From a virus: a DNA stretch of 6,244 nucleotides. The notes under the pieces are model-generated. The model did no database searches. It worked only from the letters and a program-made list of their open reading frames with translations, and was not told the DNA's origin. Shown here in pieces: positions 1 through 6,244 of this stretch. Where the stretch lies: IMG/VR virus record IMGVR_UViG_3300049737_000693, positions 1 to 6,244 of that record; one strand, written 5' to 3'. Every line of letters begins with the position of its first letter. The first letter of the stretch is position 1. Made by a program: the position numbers and the translations under genes.

Positions 1-127
1 TTGCAATTTTTCTATAGTGTGCTTAACCTCATTACCTTTTCCATAGACCTTAGAGCGCACCAAGCGAGAAGTCGCACCGCCATAATAAGCAGTATTAATA
101 AAGTCGCGCTTTTTAGTGTCGTTTTTT
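1..127. repeat. Terminal overlap copy A, identical to 6118-6244. It marks circular permutation or an assembly overlap, not a biological repeat.
   Basis: I compared 1-127 with 6118-6244 base by base and they are identical. The sequence lies inside the gII coding region. Confidence 0.95.
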
Positions 128-627
128 CTTTGGCCATTACTGACAGAAGATAGAAAACGAATAGCAGGCGTTATCATATTGGCAGAGGGTAAAGAAGCGG
201 AGTAAGTAGCATCTAGCTGCCTAACATCGGTTTTCCATAAATCAAGACATTCAGAAACGAACCAAGGATAAACCGACTCAAGAATGGCGAACATCTCAGC
301 AGCGCCATTAAAGATACTCTCACCGCCATAAACATTATGACCCTGAAGAAGCTTTGCAGGGCTTGCTTTTAATTCCATGTAAGGCGGAGTTAATCGACAA
401 GTATCATAAAATTTTATAGCAAGCGAAGAAAAGGAAGAGGGCAAAGACTCATAAGGGTGATATAACTCGCCATGTGTGACGACCCTAGTAACAGGGTCAC
501 GAGATATATGACGAGTAGAAGAAGCTAGGCCATAATCAGCAACATCACCTTTAATAGTCCAAAGATCACCACGTTTATCATAAAACTCAGGACGCATAGG
601 AACGCGAAGAACTAACATATCTAGCAT
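1..627 (-). CDS. gII: Replication initiation protein, Ff gene II family, N-terminal 209 codons. The full gene is complement(join(5488..6117,1..627)), 418 aa.
   Basis: The ATG at 627 follows AAGGAG by 6 nt, and I translated it without stops down to position 1. The product begins MLDMLVLRVPM, then HPYESLPSSFSSLAIKFYD, ELKASPAKLLQGHNVYG, QLDATYSASLP and SSVSNGQRK. These parallel f1/M13 pII MIDMLVLRLPF, HPFESLPTHYSGIAFKIYE, EIKASPAKVLQGHNVFG, RIDATFSARAP and RNVSNGQTK (from recall). Confidence 0.9.
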   Translation of the reverse strand, partial: MLDMLVLRVPMRPEFYDKRGDLWTIKGDVADYGLASSTRHISRDPVTRVVTHGELYHPYESLPSSFSSLAIKFYDTCRLTPPYMELKASPAKLLQGHNVYGGESIFNGAAEMFAILESVYPWFVSECLDLWKTDVRQLDATYSASLPSANMITPAIRFLSSVSNGQRKNDTKKRDFINTAYYGGATSRLVRSKVYGKGNEVKHTIEKLQ

Positions 628-782
628 TGGCCACTCCTTACACGCTTGGCACGGCCAGCCTGATAAGCAGTAAGCATAAGAAGCAAGCAAACGACAAATA
701 AATTAAAGAGCGTATAAAAAAGAAAGGCTACACCCTCATTAGTAAGCAAAACGTGCATATTTAAAAAAGGTTGATAATTCAT
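621..782 (-). CDS. 53-aa small membrane peptide of unknown function (MNYQPFLNMHVLLTNEGVAFLFYTLFNLFVVCLLLMLTAYQAGRAKRVRSGQC).
   Basis: The ATG at 782 follows GGGGGT by 5 nt and lies 2 nt after the TAG of the upstream ORF. The peptide has one hydrophobic helix and a basic C-terminal tail. Its stop TAG (623..621) lies inside ATGCTAG, which is the gII start. The TTG at 806 and ATG at 800 have no SD. Confidence 0.5.
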   Translation of the reverse strand: MNYQPFLNMHVLLTNEGVAFLFYTLFNLFVVCLLLMLTAYQAGRAKRVRSGQC

Positions 783-784
783 AA

Positions 785-1108
785 CTAACCCCCAACGCAT
801 TGACAAGAATATAAAACAGGCAAATCAATTTGGGCTAATTCGCAAAATTCACAAAAAGGAACATCAGGGTCAACATGAATTTCGGTAAAAAAGATGCCCT
901 CGACCACCGCAGAAGCGGTTTCAGAGGGACGAGGGCAAAGGGAGGTTTTTAAAATATCTTTTAATCGTTCGTTGTTTTCTAAGACATAATTTAAGTCAAT
1001 AGAGGGCAAAGAAAGGTTTTTATGATAAACATCTGACGCAGCCAAAGACTTTATAAGACTACAAATATCAGTATGACTTAAAGTTAAAGTATATAATTGA
1101 TCTGACAT
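785..1108 (-). CDS. 107-aa hypothetical protein with a C-terminal CxxC...CxC cluster, possibly a zinc-binding regulator. It is the first gene of the leftward operon.
   Basis: The ATG at 1108 follows AGAGGTG by 5 nt, whereas the ORF-track start at 1177 lies upstream of the predicted promoter -10. Cys86/Cys89 (CEFC) and Cys102/Cys104 (CQC) form a Cys4 pattern. I recognise no family. Confidence 0.55.
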   Translation of the reverse strand: MSDQLYTLTLSHTDICSLIKSLAASDVYHKNLSLPSIDLNYVLENNERLKDILKTSLCPRPSETASAVVEGIFFTEIHVDPDVPFCEFCELAQIDLPVLYSCQCVGG

Positions 1109-1119
1109 AATAACACCTC

Positions 1120-1147
1120 TGAATGTGCAAATAGTAGATTTGAATGT
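1120..1147. promoter_or_regulatory. Candidate operator: direct repeats of TGAATGT that bracket the -10 box.
   Basis: TGAATGT occurs at 1120-1126 and 1141-1147, 21 nt apart, which is about two helical turns. One copy lies in the -35/-10 spacer and the other at the predicted transcript start. GTCAA also repeats at 1154-1158 and 1161-1165. Confidence 0.35.
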
Positions 1148-1158
1148 AAACTTGTCAA
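1131..1158 (-). promoter_or_regulatory. Candidate sigma70 promoter for the minus-strand operon (107-aa ORF, 53-aa ORF, gII and downstream genes).
   Basis: On the minus strand there is a perfect -35 TTGACA (1158..1153), a 16-nt spacer and a -10 TACTAT (1136..1131). The first ATG is at 1108. The plus-strand TTGTCA (1152-1157) overlaps back to back and could be the -35 of the divergent promoter, with a weak -10 CATAAC at 1175-1180. Confidence 0.5.
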
Positions 1159-1239
1159 CAGTCAAGGTTACAAACATAACTTATCACGATAAAAACAATA
1201 TAGCAACGTATTTTTAATTATATTATTAGAGGGCTAAAA

Positions 1240-1458
1240 ATGACACGATCAATAAGACTAAACGAGATAGAAAGGAAGTTAATTAAAAAGAAATCAAGAG
1301 AAATAAATAAAAAGCTGGTTATGTCAGGCAGAGAACCGATGAAAGAAAGCGAAATACTACACGAAATATTAGAAAAAACAATAGAAAGGGCAGAGTTAAA
1401 CGGTCAAGGAAATATTGAAATAAGCCTAAATTTAGGCCAAGAGTCCACAACTAAATAA
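1240..1458 (+). CDS. 72-aa ribbon-helix-helix-like DNA-binding protein, a candidate phage repressor/regulator and the only plus-strand gene.
   Basis: AGAGGG lies 6 nt upstream of the ATG. The N-terminus TRSIRLNEIERKLIKKKS fits an RHH beta-strand plus helix A, and MKESEILHEILEKTIERA fits helix B. The gene is transcribed divergently from the main operon, as rstR is in CTXphi. Caveat: it is antisense to a T-rich region that corresponds to Ff origin domain B, and its last codons overlap the origin hairpin. Confidence 0.5.
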   Translation: MTRSIRLNEIERKLIKKKSREINKKLVMSGREPMKESEILHEILEKTIERAELNGQGNIEISLNLGQESTTK

Positions 1459-1467
1459 CGTGGACGA
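1424..1467 (-). promoter_or_regulatory. Ff-type (+)-strand origin core: a nick-site hairpin plus an adjacent palindrome that is the putative Rep binding site.
   Basis: Minus strand 1467->1424 reads TCGTCCAC GTTATTTAGTT GTGGACTC TTG GCCTAAATTTAGGC. The f1 origin as I recall it reads GAGTCCAC GTTCTTTAATA GTGGACTC TTG TTCCAAACTGGAA. That gives 22/27 identity over the hairpin, the same 11-nt loop, the same TTG spacer and a palindrome in the same place. The stem pairs 1465..1460 with 1448..1443. The nick predicted by analogy is GTTATTT^AGTT, between 1453 and 1452. Confidence 0.8.
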
Positions 1468-1519
1468 AAAGAAAAGATAATCTACTGACAGTTAATAACT
1501 GACCTAATGCCTAACGCTT

Positions 1520-1545
1520 GCCCCCAGCAAAAAGACGCTGGGCGC
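1520..1545. other. GC-rich hairpin in the convergent intergenic region, a candidate packaging-signal, (-) origin or terminator element.
   Basis: GCCCCCAGC (1520-1528) pairs with GCTGGGCGC (1537-1545): 8 of 9 positions pair (one C-C mismatch) around an 8-nt loop. No T-run follows on either strand. It is flanked by direct repeats CTAACGCTTG (1511-1520) and CTAACGGCTG (1547-1556). Confidence 0.4.
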
Positions 1546-1615
1546 GCTAACGGCTGTTAATTGAGGGGTCTCTATCGTTGATTATCGAAAAGAAGTTAAC
1601 TGGAGAAAAAGAAGT

Positions 1616-2935
1616 TTAACTTGATGCAGGATTGGGCGCAGTAGATGCCAGTGCAGGAGGTGCAGAGCTTTTAACTTTTGGGAGCATACCTTTTTTTGAT
1701 AAGTAGGCCTTGCAATCAGTATCAGAGATATGAGAGAGCAAAGCACCGTTACTATTATACAAAGAACACTCACCGTACATCTGCATACCAGAGACAGGAA
1801 CAAGGTTTATATCTTCGATATAGCCACCGCTTAAAGGGTCATAAATACCAGATGGCACAGCATCAGCATCAGCATCAGGAAGCGGAGCAGGGGCAACAGT
1901 AGGCGGAACAGCTTTATCCTGAGCTTTTGGAGCATCAAAAGGATTTTTAGTCATATCAGCAGTTGGAACATCAAAAGCAGGGTCTTTACCCATCATGCCA
2001 TTAACCAAAGTAGAGTCTTTTGAACCACTAGCAGCCCACACAAACATAGCTATAGCAAAGAAAATAACGAAAGCAAAACCTATCAACGCCTTAAACGGTA
2101 TGCGCTTTTGATGCGTGTTGATGGTTGTCGATTTATAGAGCTTAAAAAGCCTATCTGGTGGGCTAAAATTGAATTTACGCTCTGCACTCATTTTAATAGA
2201 TACAGCATTGGGATTTTGACGGTATGATCCGTATTGATAAACCTTTGACACCCAGCCCCACGGAACAGTAATATGCCAATGCAGCCCAATCAAATCCTTA
2301 ATCTGAACATGAAGCAAGTTAGCCGACTGAGTGATTAAATAAAAATCAAAACCTCTATGGCGGTGAATAGTCAAATCTTGAATGATAGGCTCATCTTTAT
2401 TCTTTGATTGCTTATAAGGCTCGACAAGCTGAACCTCGTCAATAACGATGATTGACCCATCAGGAGCCTTGCGCCAGTCAATATATTCTCTATCATCAAG
2501 CAAATCATATAGCGAGCGCACAAAGTCGATTTTCAAGGCGTTAATATTGGCGTATATCGTCCGCACTGGTAGCAGATACTTAAAACCAGTGATATTATCA
2601 GTTTCGACAATACGATTAATAATACTATTATAAATAGTAGCAACTTTATAATAGTCATCTGGGCGCAAGTCGTCATACTCGACAGATAACATATCAAAGT
2701 AATCATCTGGCAATATGGTTATTTCTTGCTTAAGCAAATGACCAGAGCCAACATCTTCATAGTAATAGGTCATCTGATTTTGCAAATCATAATCTTTGAT
2801 GATTTTTTGGTTATGCTGATAGTAAGCAATATTTTTAACCAGATTGACTTTGTTCTCCGACTCTGTTTTGTCTAATTTTGAGACGACAAAAACCGTTTTC
2901 TTTGCGCCTGGTACGCCAGTAACTAAGCCTAACAT
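1616..2935 (-). CDS. gI: Assembly/export NTPase of the pI / Zot family, 439 aa, with a cytoplasmic P-loop domain, one TM helix and a periplasmic C-terminal domain.
   Basis: GGAGG lies 9 nt upstream of the ATG at 2935. The Walker A-like GVPGAKKT matches the Zot-type G-x-P-G-x-x-K-T (CTXphi Zot GAPGSYKT, from recall). The Walker B is SIIVIDEVQ. The TM helix is FKALIGFAFVIFFAIAMFVWAA (about residues 281-302), followed by a Pro/Ala-rich linker. The gene follows gVI as in Ff. Confidence 0.85.
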   Translation of the reverse strand: MLGLVTGVPGAKKTVFVVSKLDKTESENKVNLVKNIAYYQHNQKIIKDYDLQNQMTYYYEDVGSGHLLKQEITILPDDYFDMLSVEYDDLRPDDYYKVATIYNSIINRIVETDNITGFKYLLPVRTIYANINALKIDFVRSLYDLLDDREYIDWRKAPDGSIIVIDEVQLVEPYKQSKNKDEPIIQDLTIHRHRGFDFYLITQSANLLHVQIKDLIGLHWHITVPWGWVSKVYQYGSYRQNPNAVSIKMSAERKFNFSPPDRLFKLYKSTTINTHQKRIPFKALIGFAFVIFFAIAMFVWAASGSKDSTLVNGMMGKDPAFDVPTADMTKNPFDAPKAQDKAVPPTVAPAPLPDADADAVPSGIYDPLSGGYIEDINLVPVSGMQMYGECSLYNSNGALLSHISDTDCKAYLSKKGMLPKVKSSAPPALASTAPNPASS

Positions 2936-2956
2936 TTATAAATTCCTCCGTTTTTC

Positions 2957-3006
2957 ATCGTCGTCAATCGTCGTCCCTCCTCTTCCTCCTCCTCAAAACG
3001 TCGTCA
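2957..3006 (-). promoter_or_regulatory. gVI-gI intergenic element: a 21-nt polypurine array of overlapping SD motifs flanked by phased CGTCGTC repeats.
   Basis: The minus strand reads TGACGACG TTTT GAGGAGGAGGAAGAGGAGGGA CGACGAT TGACGACGATG. On the plus strand ATCGTCGTC occurs at 2957-2965 and 2967-2975, and CGTCGTCA at 2999-3006 (starts at 2959, 2969 and 2999). The pyrimidine run spans 2974-2994. Confidence 0.3.
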
Positions 3007-3279
3007 TTTTTTACGTAGTGAGAGTTTAGAAGCGCCCAATGTTGCAGCAGTAACGATTGCGCCCAAAATAATACTAATTGCATAATCAAAACCAGCAATA
3101 TGAGCTAGACTTAAAATATCGGCAGGAATACCACCAGTATTAGCCCTAAACCTATCAATGAATTGATTTATCAAAAACATTGATGCGCCAGCAGTGCCAA
3201 GAGTAAGCCCAGCACCAGTTAAAATATCTTTTAACCAACCTTTATTTAATGACTTTAGTAACGCAGCTAGACTACCCAT
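3004..3279 (-). CDS. gVI: 91-aa hydrophobic minor virion protein, the pVI / Ace positional analogue.
   Basis: It lies between gIII and gI as in Ff and CTXphi. The protein has hydrophobic Gly/Ala-rich segments and a basic C-terminus (LRKK). Its start overlaps the gIII stop in ATGGGTAG (3279..3272), and GGAGGT lies upstream. Confidence 0.65.
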   Translation of the reverse strand: MGSLAALLKSLNKGWLKDILTGAGLTLGTAGASMFLINQFIDRFRANTGGIPADILSLAHIAGFDYAISIILGAIVTAATLGASKLSLRKK

Positions 3280-4564
3280 TTTCTTTACGACCTCCGACTA
3301 TATAAATTGCGAACAAACTTGAAGCAGCATAAACAGGCCATTTAACGTAAGTAGATAGAAAATCACAAAGCATGACAGTATCTAACATCGTGAACTCGAT
3401 AGACTGACCAAAAATAGAGCCATTAAAGACGATAGGCGCAGGGCATGAGCCGCCAAAGTTGAAGTTAGTATCTGTCGGCTGTTCGTCAGGCTCTTGCAAG
3501 TCGATCTCAGTATCTGTCTGCTCAGGCTCAGCCTTAACCCAATCAATAAAATCACAAACAGGCGTAGCCCAATCACAAAACGCTGGCCATTCTGTCGGCA
3601 TAGGGTCAGGGTTTGGGTTTGGGTTTGGATTGTCAGGGTCAGTGTCAGTGTCAGGGTCAGTGTCAGGGTCAGTGCCAGTGTCAGGGTCAGTGCCAGTGTC
3701 AGGCTCAGTGCCGGGCTCATACTCATTCGGGCCGTACTGTTTTGGCTCTGCTTTAGACTCTAGTTGATCGTCTAATTGACCAGATTCTAGCTCGTCTAGT
3801 GCGCTATCTCTGATAACTTCCATGGCTGGAGCTTGACCTTCGTCAGCATATTCGATAACTTTTTGAGCGACTGTGTTAATGGGAATAGATTTCTCTTGAG
3901 GATTGGTATCAGAACCAGAACCAGTGGCATCGCTACCAGTTATCCTAACAGAACCCCAGTTACCACCATCAGCATACTTACAGCCAAACTCAGATTTATA
4001 ATAATCATAAATACCGCCATAAATACCAGATAACCTTACAGGGTCAAAATCAGGGTCTTGAGAGAGCTTAAGAGCTTTACAAAATGCAGTAGGGTTATAA
4101 TAACGCGCACCCTCAAAATCAACATAAGCACCACGTCCGCCAGTATCAGACGGAGAGCCGACAACATCACCATCATCAGTATAAGTGACACTATTGTTAG
4201 CAGGGTCAAGCACCCAATCTACAGTCTTACCTAATATGTCATAGACAGCAGCACCAATAACGCCACCGACACCACCCCTTAGCAATCTTTTGCCAACCTT
4301 AGCAGCATTAGCAGGGATTTTGATTGTTGATTTTTGATTTTTGGTTATTGTGTCTTTTGCGTCAGTTTGTGGGTCAACTACTGTCACCGGATAATTGCGA
4401 TTTGCTTTGACTTCGACTGTACTTTTAACGGTTGGATCATTAACGATTGAGTCATGAAACCATTTAGAGTGTTTAGGGTTTGGGTCATAGACAGCAAAAG
4501 ACGGAACAATGACAAGAGTAAAAGATAGCGCGAACGCTATAAAACGCTTAATTATGATATTCAT
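3272..4564 (-). CDS. gIII: 430-aa pIII-like adsorption/minor coat protein with a signal peptide, an N-terminal receptor domain, a low-complexity linker and a C-terminal anchor domain.
   Basis: AGGGG lies 5 nt upstream of the ATG at 4564. The signal peptide is MNIIIKRFIAFALSFTLVIVPSFA and the linker is EPGTEPDTGTDPDTGTDPDTDPDTDTDPDNPNPNPNPDP. The C-terminal FNFGGSCP...SIEF...LCDF followed by the hydrophobic anchor VYAASSLFAIYIVGGRKENG mirrors the Ff pIII C-domain layout. It is the largest gene after gVIII. Confidence 0.8.
   Translation of the reverse strand: MNIIIKRFIAFALSFTLVIVPSFAVYDPNPKHSKWFHDSIVNDPTVKSTVEVKANRNYPVTVVDPQTDAKDTITKNQKSTIKIPANAAKVGKRLLRGGVGGVIGAAVYDILGKTVDWVLDPANNSVTYTDDGDVVGSPSDTGGRGAYVDFEGARYYNPTAFCKALKLSQDPDFDPVRLSGIYGGIYDYYKSEFGCKYADGGNWGSVRITGSDATGSGSDTNPQEKSIPINTVAQKVIEYADEGQAPAMEVIRDSALDELESGQLDDQLESKAEPKQYGPNEYEPGTEPDTGTDPDTGTDPDTDPDTDTDPDNPNPNPNPDPMPTEWPAFCDWATPVCDFIDWVKAEPEQTDTEIDLQEPDEQPTDTNFNFGGSCPAPIVFNGSIFGQSIEFTMLDTVMLCDFLSTYVKWPVYAASSLFAIYIVGGRKENG
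3609..3715. repeat. Hexanucleotide tandem repeats inside gIII that encode the TD/PD/TG/PN dipeptide linker.
   Basis: GGGTTT x3 occupies 3609-3626. About 14 consecutive GTCAGG/GTCAGT/GCCAGT hexamers follow at 3632-3715, including the 18-nt unit GTCAGGGTCAGTGCCAGT twice in tandem. Confidence 0.9.
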
Positions 4565-4572
4565 ATCAACCC

Positions 4573-4659
4573 CTATCTAAATGACCATGTAACCAAGACA
4601 AGAGCAAAAGCAATCATCGCGTAAGGGAGTAAATTTAGTATGCTAGGGGCATCTGTCAT
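4573..4659 (-). CDS. 28-aa small hydrophobic protein (MTDAPSILNLLPYAMIAFALVLVTWSFR), pVII/pIX-like in architecture. An alternative start at 4665 gives 30 aa.
   Basis: It is absent from the ORF track because it is under 60 aa. AAGGA lies 7 nt upstream of the ATG at 4659. The protein has an acidic N-terminus, one hydrophobic helix and a terminal Arg, as Ff pVII does. Its stop TAG at 4575..4573 lies 8 nt before the gIII ATG, and the gIII SD AGGGG overlaps that stop, so the ORF fills an otherwise empty gap. Confidence 0.5.
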   Translation of the reverse strand: MTDAPSILNLLPYAMIAFALVLVTWSFR

Positions 4660-4671
4660 ATCCATATCCTT

Positions 4672-4709
4672 AAAAAAAAGATAGCCCTACTTTTTAGGGT
4701 AGAGCTATC
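4672..4709 (-). terminator. Rho-independent terminator immediately downstream of the major coat gene.
   Basis: The minus strand reads GATAGCUCUAC ccuaaaaa GUAGGGCUAUC UUUUUUUU. This is an 11-bp stem with one G-U pair (4709..4699 pairing with 4690..4680), an 8-nt loop and a U8 tract (4679..4672). It occupies the same position as the Ff terminator after gVIII. Confidence 0.8.
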
Positions 4710-4730
4710 ATTTAAACGCTATAGAACAAA

Positions 4731-4985
4731 TTAGGCTTTGTTAACGCCTGATTTGAGGTATTGATAGCCTTTAAATGTACCCAGAATACCAACACCAATG
4801 GCGAAAATACCTAAAGCAACCGCTAAAGCAGCGCTGATATTTTCAGTTACACCCGTACCCAAAGCAGTAATATTATCTTCTGCCAGTGCTGCATTAGTAG
4901 CACCAATAACGGCAAATGCTACGGCAGCTTGTGCTAGGGTATTGCGCTTTTTAGTTGGCGCGGCAACAACTTGATTTTCTGACAT
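4731..4985 (-). CDS. gVIII: Major coat protein precursor (pVIII-like), 84 aa, with a predicted 35-aa signal peptide and a 49-aa mature protein.
   Basis: AAGGAAAG lies upstream of the ATG at 4985. The signal sequence ends in ALA, followed by mature EDNITALGTGVTENISAALAVALGIFAIGVGILGTFKGYQYLKSGVNKA. That mature protein has an acidic N-terminus, a hydrophobic core and a Lys-rich C-terminus, which is the canonical inovirus coat layout. The ORF-track start at 5069 overlaps the upstream gene and has no SD. Confidence 0.85.
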   Translation of the reverse strand: MSENQVVAAPTKKRNTLAQAAVAFAVIGATNAALAEDNITALGTGVTENISAALAVALGIFAIGVGILGTFKGYQYLKSGVNKA

Positions 4986-4999
4986 GACAGCTTTCCTTT

Positions 5000-5182
5000 T
5001 TAAGCTAGTTTTATTGCCTTTGCTATGATTGCGTAAGATGCACACATAGCAAAGAATGATATGACCCATTGCCCAACCAGATAAGCATCAGCTTGAGATA
5101 AGGCTAAGGTCTGTGGGGCGTTATAAACGACCCATTCCATGCACGTATTAGAAACTTGATCAAGAGTCTGGCAGACGTACAT
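5000..5182 (-). CDS. 60-aa small protein with a C-terminal TM helix, at the position of Ff gVII/gIX.
   Basis: AAGGAA lies 4 nt upstream of the ATG at 5182. The hydrophobic segment is LVGQWVISFFAMCASYAIIAKAI. It sits between the gV-position ORF and gVIII, and its stop is 15 nt before the gVIII ATG. Confidence 0.55.
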   Translation of the reverse strand: MYVCQTLDQVSNTCMEWVVYNAPQTLALSQADAYLVGQWVISFFAMCASYAIIAKAIKLA

Positions 5183-5190
5183 AAAATTCC

Positions 5191-5478
5191 TTACATTTCA
5201 GTGAGTATTGAAGTCGGATCAAGAATATCGGATTGAGTCAAAAACCAAACACCACCGCCCTTTTTCTTTGGAGTAGCTGTCACAGATATTTGTACCGTTT
5301 CATTAATATGTTTTTGATAATTAGGCATAAAATGGGCACACTCGTCAGTAATGATAACTTGCTCAGAGCATGGTACATTCTTATTAAGACCGCGATCATA
5401 ACGCTCAGACTCAAACGTTATAGTCTTAAAACCATCATTATTTTCAACTTTTAAAATCTCACCCATATAAATAATCAT
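5191..5478 (-). CDS. 95-aa protein at the gV position, a candidate ssDNA-binding protein.
   Basis: It follows gII immediately (a 9-nt gap), with AGGA 7 nt upstream of the ATG at 5478. Its size falls in the pV range. The call is positional only, since I see no sequence similarity to Ff pV. An alternative ATG lies at 5466. Confidence 0.45.
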   Translation of the reverse strand: MIIYMGEILKVENNDGFKTITFESERYDRGLNKNVPCSEQVIITDECAHFMPNYQKHINETVQISVTATPKKKGGGVWFLTQSDILDPTSILTEM

Positions 5479-5487
5479 AATAATTTC

Positions 5488-5871
5488 CTAAGCGACTAAG
5501 CGCGGTTTATTGTAGCGGTTGAAGTAGTGGTCATAATCAGGACGATGTAAAGAGTTTGGCGGAACGTAACCATCAGGAGCTTGTTTAGAAAAATCAATTT
5601 TTACAATATCAACCATAGGCAAAACACGGGCATGAGTGCCAAGATTTTGCAAATGGGCTTTAGGAATACCAATATCAACAAGGCATTTAACAAGGTTGTT
5701 AAACTGAGAAGAACTATAGCGACCTTTAATAGCATCATAGCCATTAATTTTTAACAACTGAAAAAAGTTAAAAGCATTGTTCGCTTTTGTGTAACTGATA
5801 TTACCTTTAGCGGTATAGCTAACTAGCTTTGATCTACATAACTTTTGAATTTCTTTATCACTAATATCCAT
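5488..5871 (-). CDS. gX: Candidate nested gene X: an in-frame internal start within gII giving a 127-aa C-terminal product.
   Basis: The internal ATG at 5871 (EGEV-MDISDKEIQ) aligns with the Ff pX start (EGDS-MNIYDDSAV). GAAGGTGA lies 4 nt upstream of it. Confidence 0.45.
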   Translation of the reverse strand: MDISDKEIQKLCRSKLVSYTAKGNISYTKANNAFNFFQLLKINGYDAIKGRYSSSQFNNLVKCLVDIGIPKAHLQNLGTHARVLPMVDIVKIDFSKQAPDGYVPPNSLHRPDYDHYFNRYNKPRLVA

Positions 5872-6244
5872 GACTTCACCTTCGAGAGCTTTGAGAATAG
5901 GCGCGAACCCTTCAAGCCATAATTTTTGTAGTAAATTTGGGTGTCTGTATTGGTACTCTATCAAACGCCATAAATTAGTAGGTAAACCGGAACGCTCAAG
6001 CTTACGAGCCATGACGCTATGTTCGAAACGCAGCAAGCAAGATGAGAATTTTATTAATTCGGGTGTGTAAACCTTTAAAGCGTCACGAGAATGTAAACAA
6101 CCTTTATCAGATTTTTTTTGCAATTTTTCTATAGTGTGCTTAACCTCATTACCTTTTCCATAGACCTTAGAGCGCACCAAGCGAGAAGTCGCACCGCCAT
6201 AATAAGCAGTATTAATAAAGTCGCGCTTTTTAGTGTCGTTTTTT
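5488..6244 (-). CDS. gII: Replication initiation protein, Ff gene II family, C-terminal part. The 5' end runs off the window, and 6118-6244 duplicates 1-127.
   Basis: It is in frame with the 1..627 fragment (627-63 is divisible by 3). LLRFEHSVMARKLERSGLPTNLW, GIPKAHLQNLGT and VLPMVDIVKIDFSKQAPDGY parallel f1 pII LVRFEARIKTRYLKSFGLPLNLF, GIPKSQLMNLST and VVPLVRFINVDFSSQRPDWY (from recall). The ORF-track start at 6180 is only the first TTG inside the window. Confidence 0.9.
   Translation of the reverse strand, partial: KNDTKKRDFINTAYYGGATSRLVRSKVYGKGNEVKHTIEKLQKKSDKGCLHSRDALKVYTPELIKFSSCLLRFEHSVMARKLERSGLPTNLWRLIEYQYRHPNLLQKLWLEGFAPILKALEGEVMDISDKEIQKLCRSKLVSYTAKGNISYTKANNAFNFFQLLKINGYDAIKGRYSSSQFNNLVKCLVDIGIPKAHLQNLGTHARVLPMVDIVKIDFSKQAPDGYVPPNSLHRPDYDHYFNRYNKPRLVA
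6118..6244. repeat. Terminal overlap copy B, identical to 1-127.
   Basis: Same comparison as copy A. A length of exactly 127 nt is what a k=127 de Bruijn assembler leaves on a circular contig. Confidence 0.95.

Follow-up and report, generated by a model that had tools for sequence, protein, structure and literature searches.

Inoviruses are pervasive phages. Their effects on the host, which include exclusion, virulence and biofilm traits, are often determined by small accessory genes. In the Ff phages and IKe, the promoter region runs directly into gII, the gene for the pII-family replication protein (Rep), and the coupled genes gV-gVII-gIX-gVIII have compact stop/start junctions with Shine-Dalgarno (SD) sequences placed within the upstream gene. 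The inovirus record IMGVR_UViG_3300049737_000693 of IMG/VR, whose positions 1 to 6,244 make up the whole stretch analysed here (the window, 6,244 nucleotides, nt), shares the pII-family Rep, the compact junctions and the embedded SD sequences with these phages. In Ff and IKe, as in Dulem virus 65 and Acinetobacter phage M02, the promoter region is followed at once by gII, whereas the leader of the window holds two coding genes. We refer to them as open reading frames (ORFs) 1 and 2. ORF1 encodes an acidic Cys-rich protein of 107 amino acids (aa), and ORF2 encodes a membrane peptide of 53 aa.

Some described proteins resemble the two products in part. PfsE (PA0721; orf30 of Pf1), a peptide of 30 aa in the Pf inoviruses of Pseudomonas, resides in the inner membrane and blocks superinfection by binding to PilC, the platform protein of the type IV pilus (PMC8764522). 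Very small and dispensable for the virion, PfsE is an inovirus membrane peptide, and ORF2 likewise encodes a single-helix peptide in an accessory position. However, the PfsE gene lies after the gene for the ssDNA-binding protein, whereas ORF2, whose family is characterized by 53-71 aa, an MNY[QE]PF start and a basic tail, belongs to an early regulatory operon. ORF1 resembles the zinc-ribbon and zinc-knuckle proteins (Pfam Zn_ribbon) in having two invariant short Cys pairs within a module of about 30 residues. It differs from them in that the second knuckle is CxC instead of CxxC, the module carries no basic residues, and there are only sub-threshold matches and no confident fold. The h2 protein of UPphi is also a small acidic inovirus accessory protein with four Cys (PMC7307601), but its genomic position differs from that of ORF1, which stands ahead of Rep. 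The ORF1 profile, which retrieved nine representatives and no large family, gave no sign of kinship with such proteins.

Two conserved gene families ahead of gII

ORF1 and ORF2 are genuine protein-coding genes under purifying selection, since the amino acids are constrained amid saturated synonymous sites in independent metagenomic relatives. Relatives of ORF1 were found by a word search of a collection of 5.8 billion proteins (8 sequences) and by a full hidden Markov model search of 1.84 billion representative proteins (9 representatives). The family comprises about 16 clusters, and all members found come from metagenomic inoviruses. In the C-terminal module of ORF1, comparison of the window with the related loci L004, L005, L007 and L009 gave proportions of synonymous differences (pS) of 0.66-0.97, which is saturated, and proportions of non-synonymous differences (pN) of 0.08-0.22. 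Conservation of this module at the DNA level was considered and rejected, as the differences are mostly synonymous. Between ORF2 and its homologue in L003 there are 13 synonymous and 2 non-synonymous changes, and both the length of 53 aa and the stop/start overlap with gII are retained in the distant TARA phage L007. A profile search with seven peptides extended the ORF2 family to 31 clusters of 53-71 aa, again all from metagenomic inoviruses, and every sequence inspected opens with MNY[QE]PF.

The preliminary description of this DNA, which was made from the sequence alone, had placed two ORFs with good SD sequences between the promoter and gII, joined as TAG-tt-ATG and as ATGCTAG. Its coordinates proved exact, and the conservation of both ORFs in relatives bears the proposal out. 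It had recognized neither product, and no described family was matched in our searches either. A tblastn search of 50,697 phage records returned no match to either product, and a search of plasmids returned chance matches only (E 0.8). The literature searched held nothing on either motif or on acidic zinc-ribbon proteins of inoviruses. What is new are both families with their signature motifs and the architecture of swapped modules described below, while compact accessory genes in the regulatory region of inoviruses are familiar.

ORF1 has an isoelectric point (pI) of 4.43 and a net charge of -9. Its N-terminal domain is helical, a CPRP linker follows, and the C-terminal module carries four Cys. 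Direct reading of the sequence reveals neither a signal peptide nor a hydrophobic segment. Although the product had been described as a four-Cys protein, it contains six Cys (C16, C58, C86, C89, C102 and C104), of which the last four form the CxxC-x12-CxC cluster (C86-xx-C89-x12-C102-x-C104) that had been noted correctly. Across 16 aligned sequences the N-terminus varies and the C-terminal module, with the signature VDxDxPFCxxCELAQ-x6-YxCQC, hardly changes. The residues P59, D82, C86, C89, E90, L91, Q93, C102 and C104 are invariant. Acidity is common to all 16 members (pI 4.0-4.8; net charges from -6 to -20), and the conserved module itself has a net charge of -6 to -7 without a single Lys or Arg. 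Since four invariant Cys occur in a cytoplasmic protein, the module most likely binds a metal, with zinc the most likely one, consistent with the zinc binding suggested earlier for the cluster.

A resemblance of ORF1, in PFC..C.L.DL, to the gyrase inhibitor YacG (PF03884; CPxC...PFCSxRCxxIDLGxW) was also considered. It was rejected, as hhalign of the family with E. coli YacG, whose sequence had been checked against 4tma_I, gave a probability of 0.75% over 10 columns, and Pfam assigned none of the ORF1 sequences to the YacG family.

ORF2 combines its conserved MNYQPF.. N-terminus with a single transmembrane helix and a basic tail, in agreement with the single-pass peptide first proposed. Its one hydrophobic 19-mer (residues 18-36) has a mean Kyte-Doolittle value of 2.49. 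The flanks carry charges of -1 on the N-terminal side and +4 on the C-terminal side, and across seven peptides of the family these range from -1 to -2 and from +2 to +5, respectively. According to the positive-inside rule, the positively charged flank of a membrane protein is cytoplasmic. With a negative N-terminal and a positive C-terminal flank, ORF2 is therefore predicted to adopt an N-out/C-in topology. This is also the topology of small inovirus membrane proteins that lack a signal sequence, such as the Pf3 coat protein.

A mosaic cassette in an accessory position

The readable loci come from marine (TARA), wastewater, JGI and Logan assemblies. Every one of them is an inovirus, and ORF1 is the first gene of an operon that diverges from a repressor-like gene. 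The type of the divergent gene varies by locus and can be ribbon-helix-helix (RHH)-like, HTH_3 or another helix-turn-helix (HTH) type. Four arrangements are seen. In the window, L003, L011, L019/L020, L007/L008 and L018, which have a pII Rep, the repressor gene is followed on the other strand by ORF1, the peptide gene and gII. In L004, L005 and L012-L017, also of the pII type, the peptide is absent and ORF1 adjoins gII. In L009/L010 and L002, which have a Rep_trans replication protein, rep is preceded, at a distance of about 1.1 kb, by the Cys ORF and the peptide. Finally, in the Rep_trans loci L023-L028 the peptide comes after an ORF that has only the N-terminus and/or the linker (CPCPPE...DGG), without the Cys module. 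The peptide is thus intact in L023, L026, L027 and L028 beside an upstream ORF that lacks the module. In every locus examined the peptide is downstream of an ORF with the CP(C)PPE linker, directly except in L026, where a 78-aa membrane ORF stands between the two.

Judged by Zot and pII, Dulem virus 65 and Acinetobacter phage M02 are the nearest named phages. Both carry the divergent RHH-like gene followed by gII, and the leader ORFs are absent. Since these nearest relatives pass from the RHH-like gene to gII directly, the pair is an accessory insertion into the gII leader that is independent of the Rep family and whose genes are separable. The earlier designation of this place as the accessory slot of the genome is thus upheld, with the slot empty in the two named phages.

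In L018, a DUF2726/DUF559 endonuclease-like gene (354-824) separates the Cys ORF from the repressor gene, a further sign that accessory genes gather in this region. In Dulem virus 62 (L021:1340-1483, PP511609.1), an unannotated Cys-rich ORF of 47 aa, ..GNFCFDCECLFTNEC.., ends 18 nt before gII. Homology of this ORF to ORF1 is not supported, as hhalign with the Cys-module profile proved not significant, and the ORF may have arisen by chance or be an analogue.

The upstream gene is itself a mosaic. Between the window and L003, the N-terminal half of ORF1 differs strongly (pS 0.56, pN 0.30), whereas the C-terminal half is almost identical (pS 0.03, pN 0.02). The comparison of L003 with L019 gives the opposite pattern of halves. 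The recombination junction lies just past the CPRP linker, at ..EGI/DGGI. The DNAs of L009, L027, L028 and L002 are near-identical up to GGACGGGGGCATC, which encodes D-G-G-I, and unrelated downstream of it; the window reads GAGGGCATC at the equivalent place. L002 corresponds to L027 with a clean in-frame insertion of 171 nt that is Cys-rich. A frameshift origin of the non-zinc tails of L023, L027 and L028 was rejected, since the DNA is unrelated past a sharp junction and the insertion in L002 is in frame. From these comparisons, ORF1 is assembled from three exchangeable segments, with the non-zinc tails as replacements, and the GGACGGGGGCATC junction could be a recombination hotspot.

The operator regions of L003 (4900-4960) and L019 (3110-3160) contain four tandem copies of ATGTTCAC, and that of the window (1125-1165) is arranged differently as TTGACTGTTGACA. 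In the comparison of the window with L003 and L019, differences in the operators go together with differences in the repressor and in the N-terminal domain of ORF1.

Junctions with gII and the genome around them

The features of the leader are listed in Table 1. The promoter-like site is upstream of the ATG at 1108 and falls inside an alternative reading of ORF1 with 130 aa, which favors the start that gives 107 aa. The context of this start, TTCAGAGGTGT-N4-ATG, is kept in L003 and L019. ORF1 and ORF2 are separated by 2 nt, and the overlap between ORF2 and gII is kept as ATG[C/T]TAG in the window, L003, L011 and L007. Where the Cys ORF meets gII without the peptide (L004, L005 and L012), the junction is TAAGTG, and in L018 a gap of 1-7 nt is present. 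An overlap or abutment of stop and start codons with gII is a feature of all pII-type loci.

Table 1. Coordinates of the leader features and their neighbors; positions refer to the window unless a locus is named
Feature	Position	Strand	Basis or remark
RHH-like putative repressor gene, 72 aa	1240..1458	+	phrog_5642, E 9e-20; divergent, outside the cassette
Promoter-like TTGACA-16 nt-TACTAT	1131..1158	-	consensus scan, 10/12 matches, consensus match only; putative early ORF1-ORF2-gII transcript
ORF1 SD GAGGTG	1114..1119	-	read from sequence
ORF1, 107 aa	785..1108; ATG 1108-1106, TAG 787-785	-	translation
Linker motif C58-P-R-P of ORF1	926..937	-	CP[CAR]P in family; P59 invariant, C58 nearly so
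Recombination junction of ORF1	window ~890-905; L009:257-510, L027:5768-6015, L028:352-585, L002:265-680		
C-terminal module of ORF1, EIHVDPDVPFCEFCELAQIDLPVLYSCQC (CxxC-x12-CxC), putative zinc-ribbon-like metal site	797..883	-	16-sequence alignment
ORF2 SD GGGGG	789..793	-	formed by the final ORF1 codons V-G-G
ORF2, 53 aa	621..782; ATG 782-780, TAG 623-621	-	translation
Predicted transmembrane segment of ORF2, VAFLFYTLFNLFVVCLLLMLTAY	663..731	-	Kyte-Doolittle scan
gII SD AAGGAG	634..639	-	within ORF2 coding sequence
ATGCTAG, gII start overlapping ORF2 stop	621..627	-	read from sequence
gII, pII-family Rep, 418 aa	627..1 then 6117..5488, across circle junction	-	Pfam Phage_CRI + G2P_X_C; phrog_702

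The last 2-4 codons of an upstream ORF serve as the SD sequence of the next gene (window 785-796 and 634-639; L004:3420-3440; L007:4415-4435). The alternative ORF1 tails EDF and KEVF of relatives encode GAGGA and AGAGG at the place equivalent to the ORF2 SD. This duty of the tail codons explains the conserved acidic/aromatic C-terminal tails, which should therefore not be read as functional. A resemblance of such C-termini (EDF, EVF and EVW; DDDIP in P0017) to the tails of SSB proteins was rejected as a general reading, as the codons are the SD sequence and the window tail is VGG.

The preliminary description regarded translation of Rep as probably coupled to that of the two ORFs. The tight junction on which this view was based is conserved, and coupling between ORF2 and gII in the window is likely, but secondary. 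The gene gII has a strong SD of its own, no significant RNA structure was found around the junctions or occluding this SD (z-scores +0.25 and +1.0), and in Rep_trans-type phages the same pair lies uncoupled, 0.25-1.1 kb upstream of rep. Coupling looks like a by-product of compact insertion and not like the task for which the ORFs exist.

The window is a complete circular inovirus record, classified in IMG/VR as having direct terminal repeats and being 100% complete. Its first 127 nt are the same as its last 127 nt, so that the genome itself measures 6117 nt. The minus strand holds all replication and morphogenesis genes, which besides gII include gV-like (95 aa), a 60-aa gene, a gVIII-like coat gene, a 30-aa gene, a 430-aa gIII-like gene, gVI (DUF2523) and gI/Zot. 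The start of pII at 627 is backed by tblastn alignments with Dulem, Ff, IKe and PEar phages, which open at residue 1, and the identity to the pII proteins of Dulem, Ff and IKe is 33-42% from that residue. Homologues of the divergent 72-aa gene occur in L003, L019, L013, Dulem virus 62, Dulem virus 65 and M02. In the window neither an integrase gene nor a dif-like XerCD site was found, the best match to such a site having 11 mismatches in 28 positions. The phage is therefore probably maintained as an episome, despite its repressor-like gene. Scans of genome contigs for the host, with the Cys profile and with gII, gave no match.

Other observations concern the structural genes and the integrated relatives. 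The 60-aa product (window 5000-5182, minus strand), MYVCQTLDQVSNTCMEWVV.., has a clear homologue, MYACQTLDEVSQTCLEWVV.., at L002:3486-3716 in a Rep_trans-type phage, and the gIII-like proteins of the window and L002 have the motif ..VDWVLDPANN.. in common. The occurrence of structural modules across the two Rep types suggests related hosts. L023 and L027 are chromosomally integrated prophages with a tyrosine integrase, and both are neighbored by the same host genes (proS, queF, an ABC transporter and cytochrome c) in two different samples. HTH repressors of Rep_trans/integrase phages (L023:7372-7662, L026:45-335 and L018:1-255) end in ...CARRESNPRPSASETDTLSN, like a translated tRNA 3' end. In these phages the 3' end of the repressor gene and the attachment site probably coincide in part.

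Candidate functions of the pair

The reading that we favor, with confidence evenly balanced for and against, is that ORF1 and ORF2 form a cassette for interaction with the host or with other phage components, in which a metal-binding acidic protein binder and an inner-membrane peptide, possibly acting in exclusion, are compactly coupled to gII. The pair is a mobile mosaic cassette that stands where related phages have a short non-coding leader before the replication gene, and it would be transcribed with gII from an early promoter opposite the RHH-like repressor gene. The strongly acidic, cytoplasmic ORF1 product would bind a metal, probably zinc, through its C-terminal module. Its partner would be another protein of the host or the phage, with the peptide as one candidate, and not nucleic acid. 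Among phages, the N-terminal domain and the C-terminal module are exchanged independently of each other. ORF2, with its N-terminus probably in the periplasm and its basic tail in the cytoplasm, would target, at the envelope, the machinery of entry or assembly, resulting in a superinfection exclusion like that of PfsE, although non-homologous to it, and may cooperate with the ORF1 product. Ribosomes that end ORF2 could re-initiate on gII, which retains its own SD.

Several results weigh against this reading. No homology or fold singles out one function. Neither ORF1 nor ORF2 has a match above threshold in Pfam, PHROGs, NCBIfam or PADLOC, a profile search of the PDB gave only a chance match (E 1.3), and hhalign of the ORF2 family with Pf1 orf30 gave a probability of 0.09%. 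The AlphaFold2 model of whole ORF1, from a 9-sequence alignment, has a mean predicted local distance difference test (pLDDT) score of 62. Helices are predicted at residues 12-32, 39-44 and 47-56 (pLDDT ~75-81), and the C-terminus is of low confidence. The C-terminal half modeled from 10 sequences reached a pLDDT of 48. Foldseek comparison of the ORF1 models with the PDB and BFVD gave no match below E 0.3, and no usable fold was obtained. Matches to Zn_ribbon_3 occur in 3 of the 16 ORF1 members, all sub-threshold (best E 0.0057, below the gathering cut-off). In addition, exclusion genes are often expressed together with the repressor and not from a repressor-controlled promoter.

A bolder extension of this reading, to which we give only a low probability, regards the start of the early operon in this marine and wastewater clade as a dedicated 'plug-in' site. 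The segments of the ORF there, namely a variable N-terminal domain, a CP(C)PPE..DGGI linker and, as an option, an acidic zinc module, would be swapped at fixed junctions. The acidic module would represent a new class of protein-binding inhibitors, working with the MNYQPF peptide as a membrane-tethered two-component system that blocks the entry of rival filamentous phages or disarms a host defence or envelope machine.

Four other explanations were considered. ORF1 may be a switch regulator, that is, a Cro-like protein or an antirepressor partner of the divergent repressor, with the N-terminal domain giving immunity specificity. Both a Cro-like regulator and an antirepressor were among the roles first suggested for the leader ORFs. 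ORF1 occupies the classical cro position in all loci as the first gene that faces the repressor, as RstC and Cro-type switch proteins do, and between the window and L003/L019 its N-terminal domain diverges together with the operator while the C-terminal half is near-identical. Known antirepressors such as RstC are also small and protein-binding. However, ORF1 is acidic, searches of Pfam and PHROGs at E<=1 gave the family neither an HTH nor an RHH match, and the module is without basic residues, so that DNA binding is unlikely. Dulem virus 65 and M02 have the same RHH-like repressor family and dispense with ORF1. Since ORF1 is acidic, has no DNA-binding fold and is dispensable in these relatives, the Cro reading is unlikely. 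The cognate antirepressor is also weakened, as the N-terminal domain does not covary with the repressor: HTH_3 repressors that are about 85% identical (L005 versus L016/L017) stand beside unrelated N-terminal domains, and the same HTH repressor is found beside long (L018) and short (L009) forms. The most conserved part of ORF1 is the C-terminal module, which is common to phages with RHH, HTH_3 and other repressors. We consider a switch role unlikely.

Alternatively, the pair may resemble an addiction or toxin-antitoxin (TA) system in which the peptide is a toxin that the acidic protein neutralizes or controls, stabilizing the episomal replicative form. The order of the genes, in which an acidic protein precedes a small, basic-tailed hydrophobic peptide, and their tight coupling resemble those of TA operons. 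The constant company of the CP(C)PPE ORF and the probably episomal life of a window phage without integrase or dif-like site also fit such a role. On the other hand, no toxin, antitoxin or defence profile of PADLOC, Pfam or NCBIfam significantly matched ORF1, ORF2 or their relatives. The zinc module is missing upstream of the intact peptide in the four loci named above, the pair is interrupted by the inserted ORF of L026, and the peptide also occurs in integrated prophages with integrases. An addiction function is unlikely, but stays in contention.

ORF1 may also be an early anti-defence protein, a small acidic inhibitor that protects incoming or replicating phage DNA as a nucleic-acid mimic or by inhibiting a defence or DNA-processing enzyme. 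Its small size, strong acidity and first place in the early operon would suit this task. Its patchy distribution and the rapid shuffling of its modules are typical of arms-race genes, and the endonuclease-like gene in the same slot of L018 marks an accessory site. Nevertheless, there is no similarity to known anti-defence proteins in the libraries searched, and the conserved module is under strong purifying selection and not the diversifying kind. We regard this role, too, as a contender of low probability.

Finally, a pure cis-acting leader, whose ORFs would only set the translation rate of gII and whose products would have no function, is very improbable: the abutting junctions of all pII-type loci and the SD duty of the terminal codons speak in its favor, but it is contradicted by the strong amino-acid constraint at saturated synonymous sites, by the four invariant Cys, by the occurrence of the same proteins in Rep_trans phages where they do not adjoin rep, and by a gII that has its own strong SD without significant RNA structure at the junctions.

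At present, the favored host- or phage-interaction cassette stands as a well-documented pair of ORFan families, which would be no surprise to specialists. Two previously unnamed families have been defined that are under selection and travel together across two Rep types, and exchange of modules at sharp junctions reshapes the upstream gene. If the peptide is an exclusion factor, or if the zinc module is an inhibitor of a host protein, the pair would provide a new mechanism in the biology of inoviruses and their hosts.

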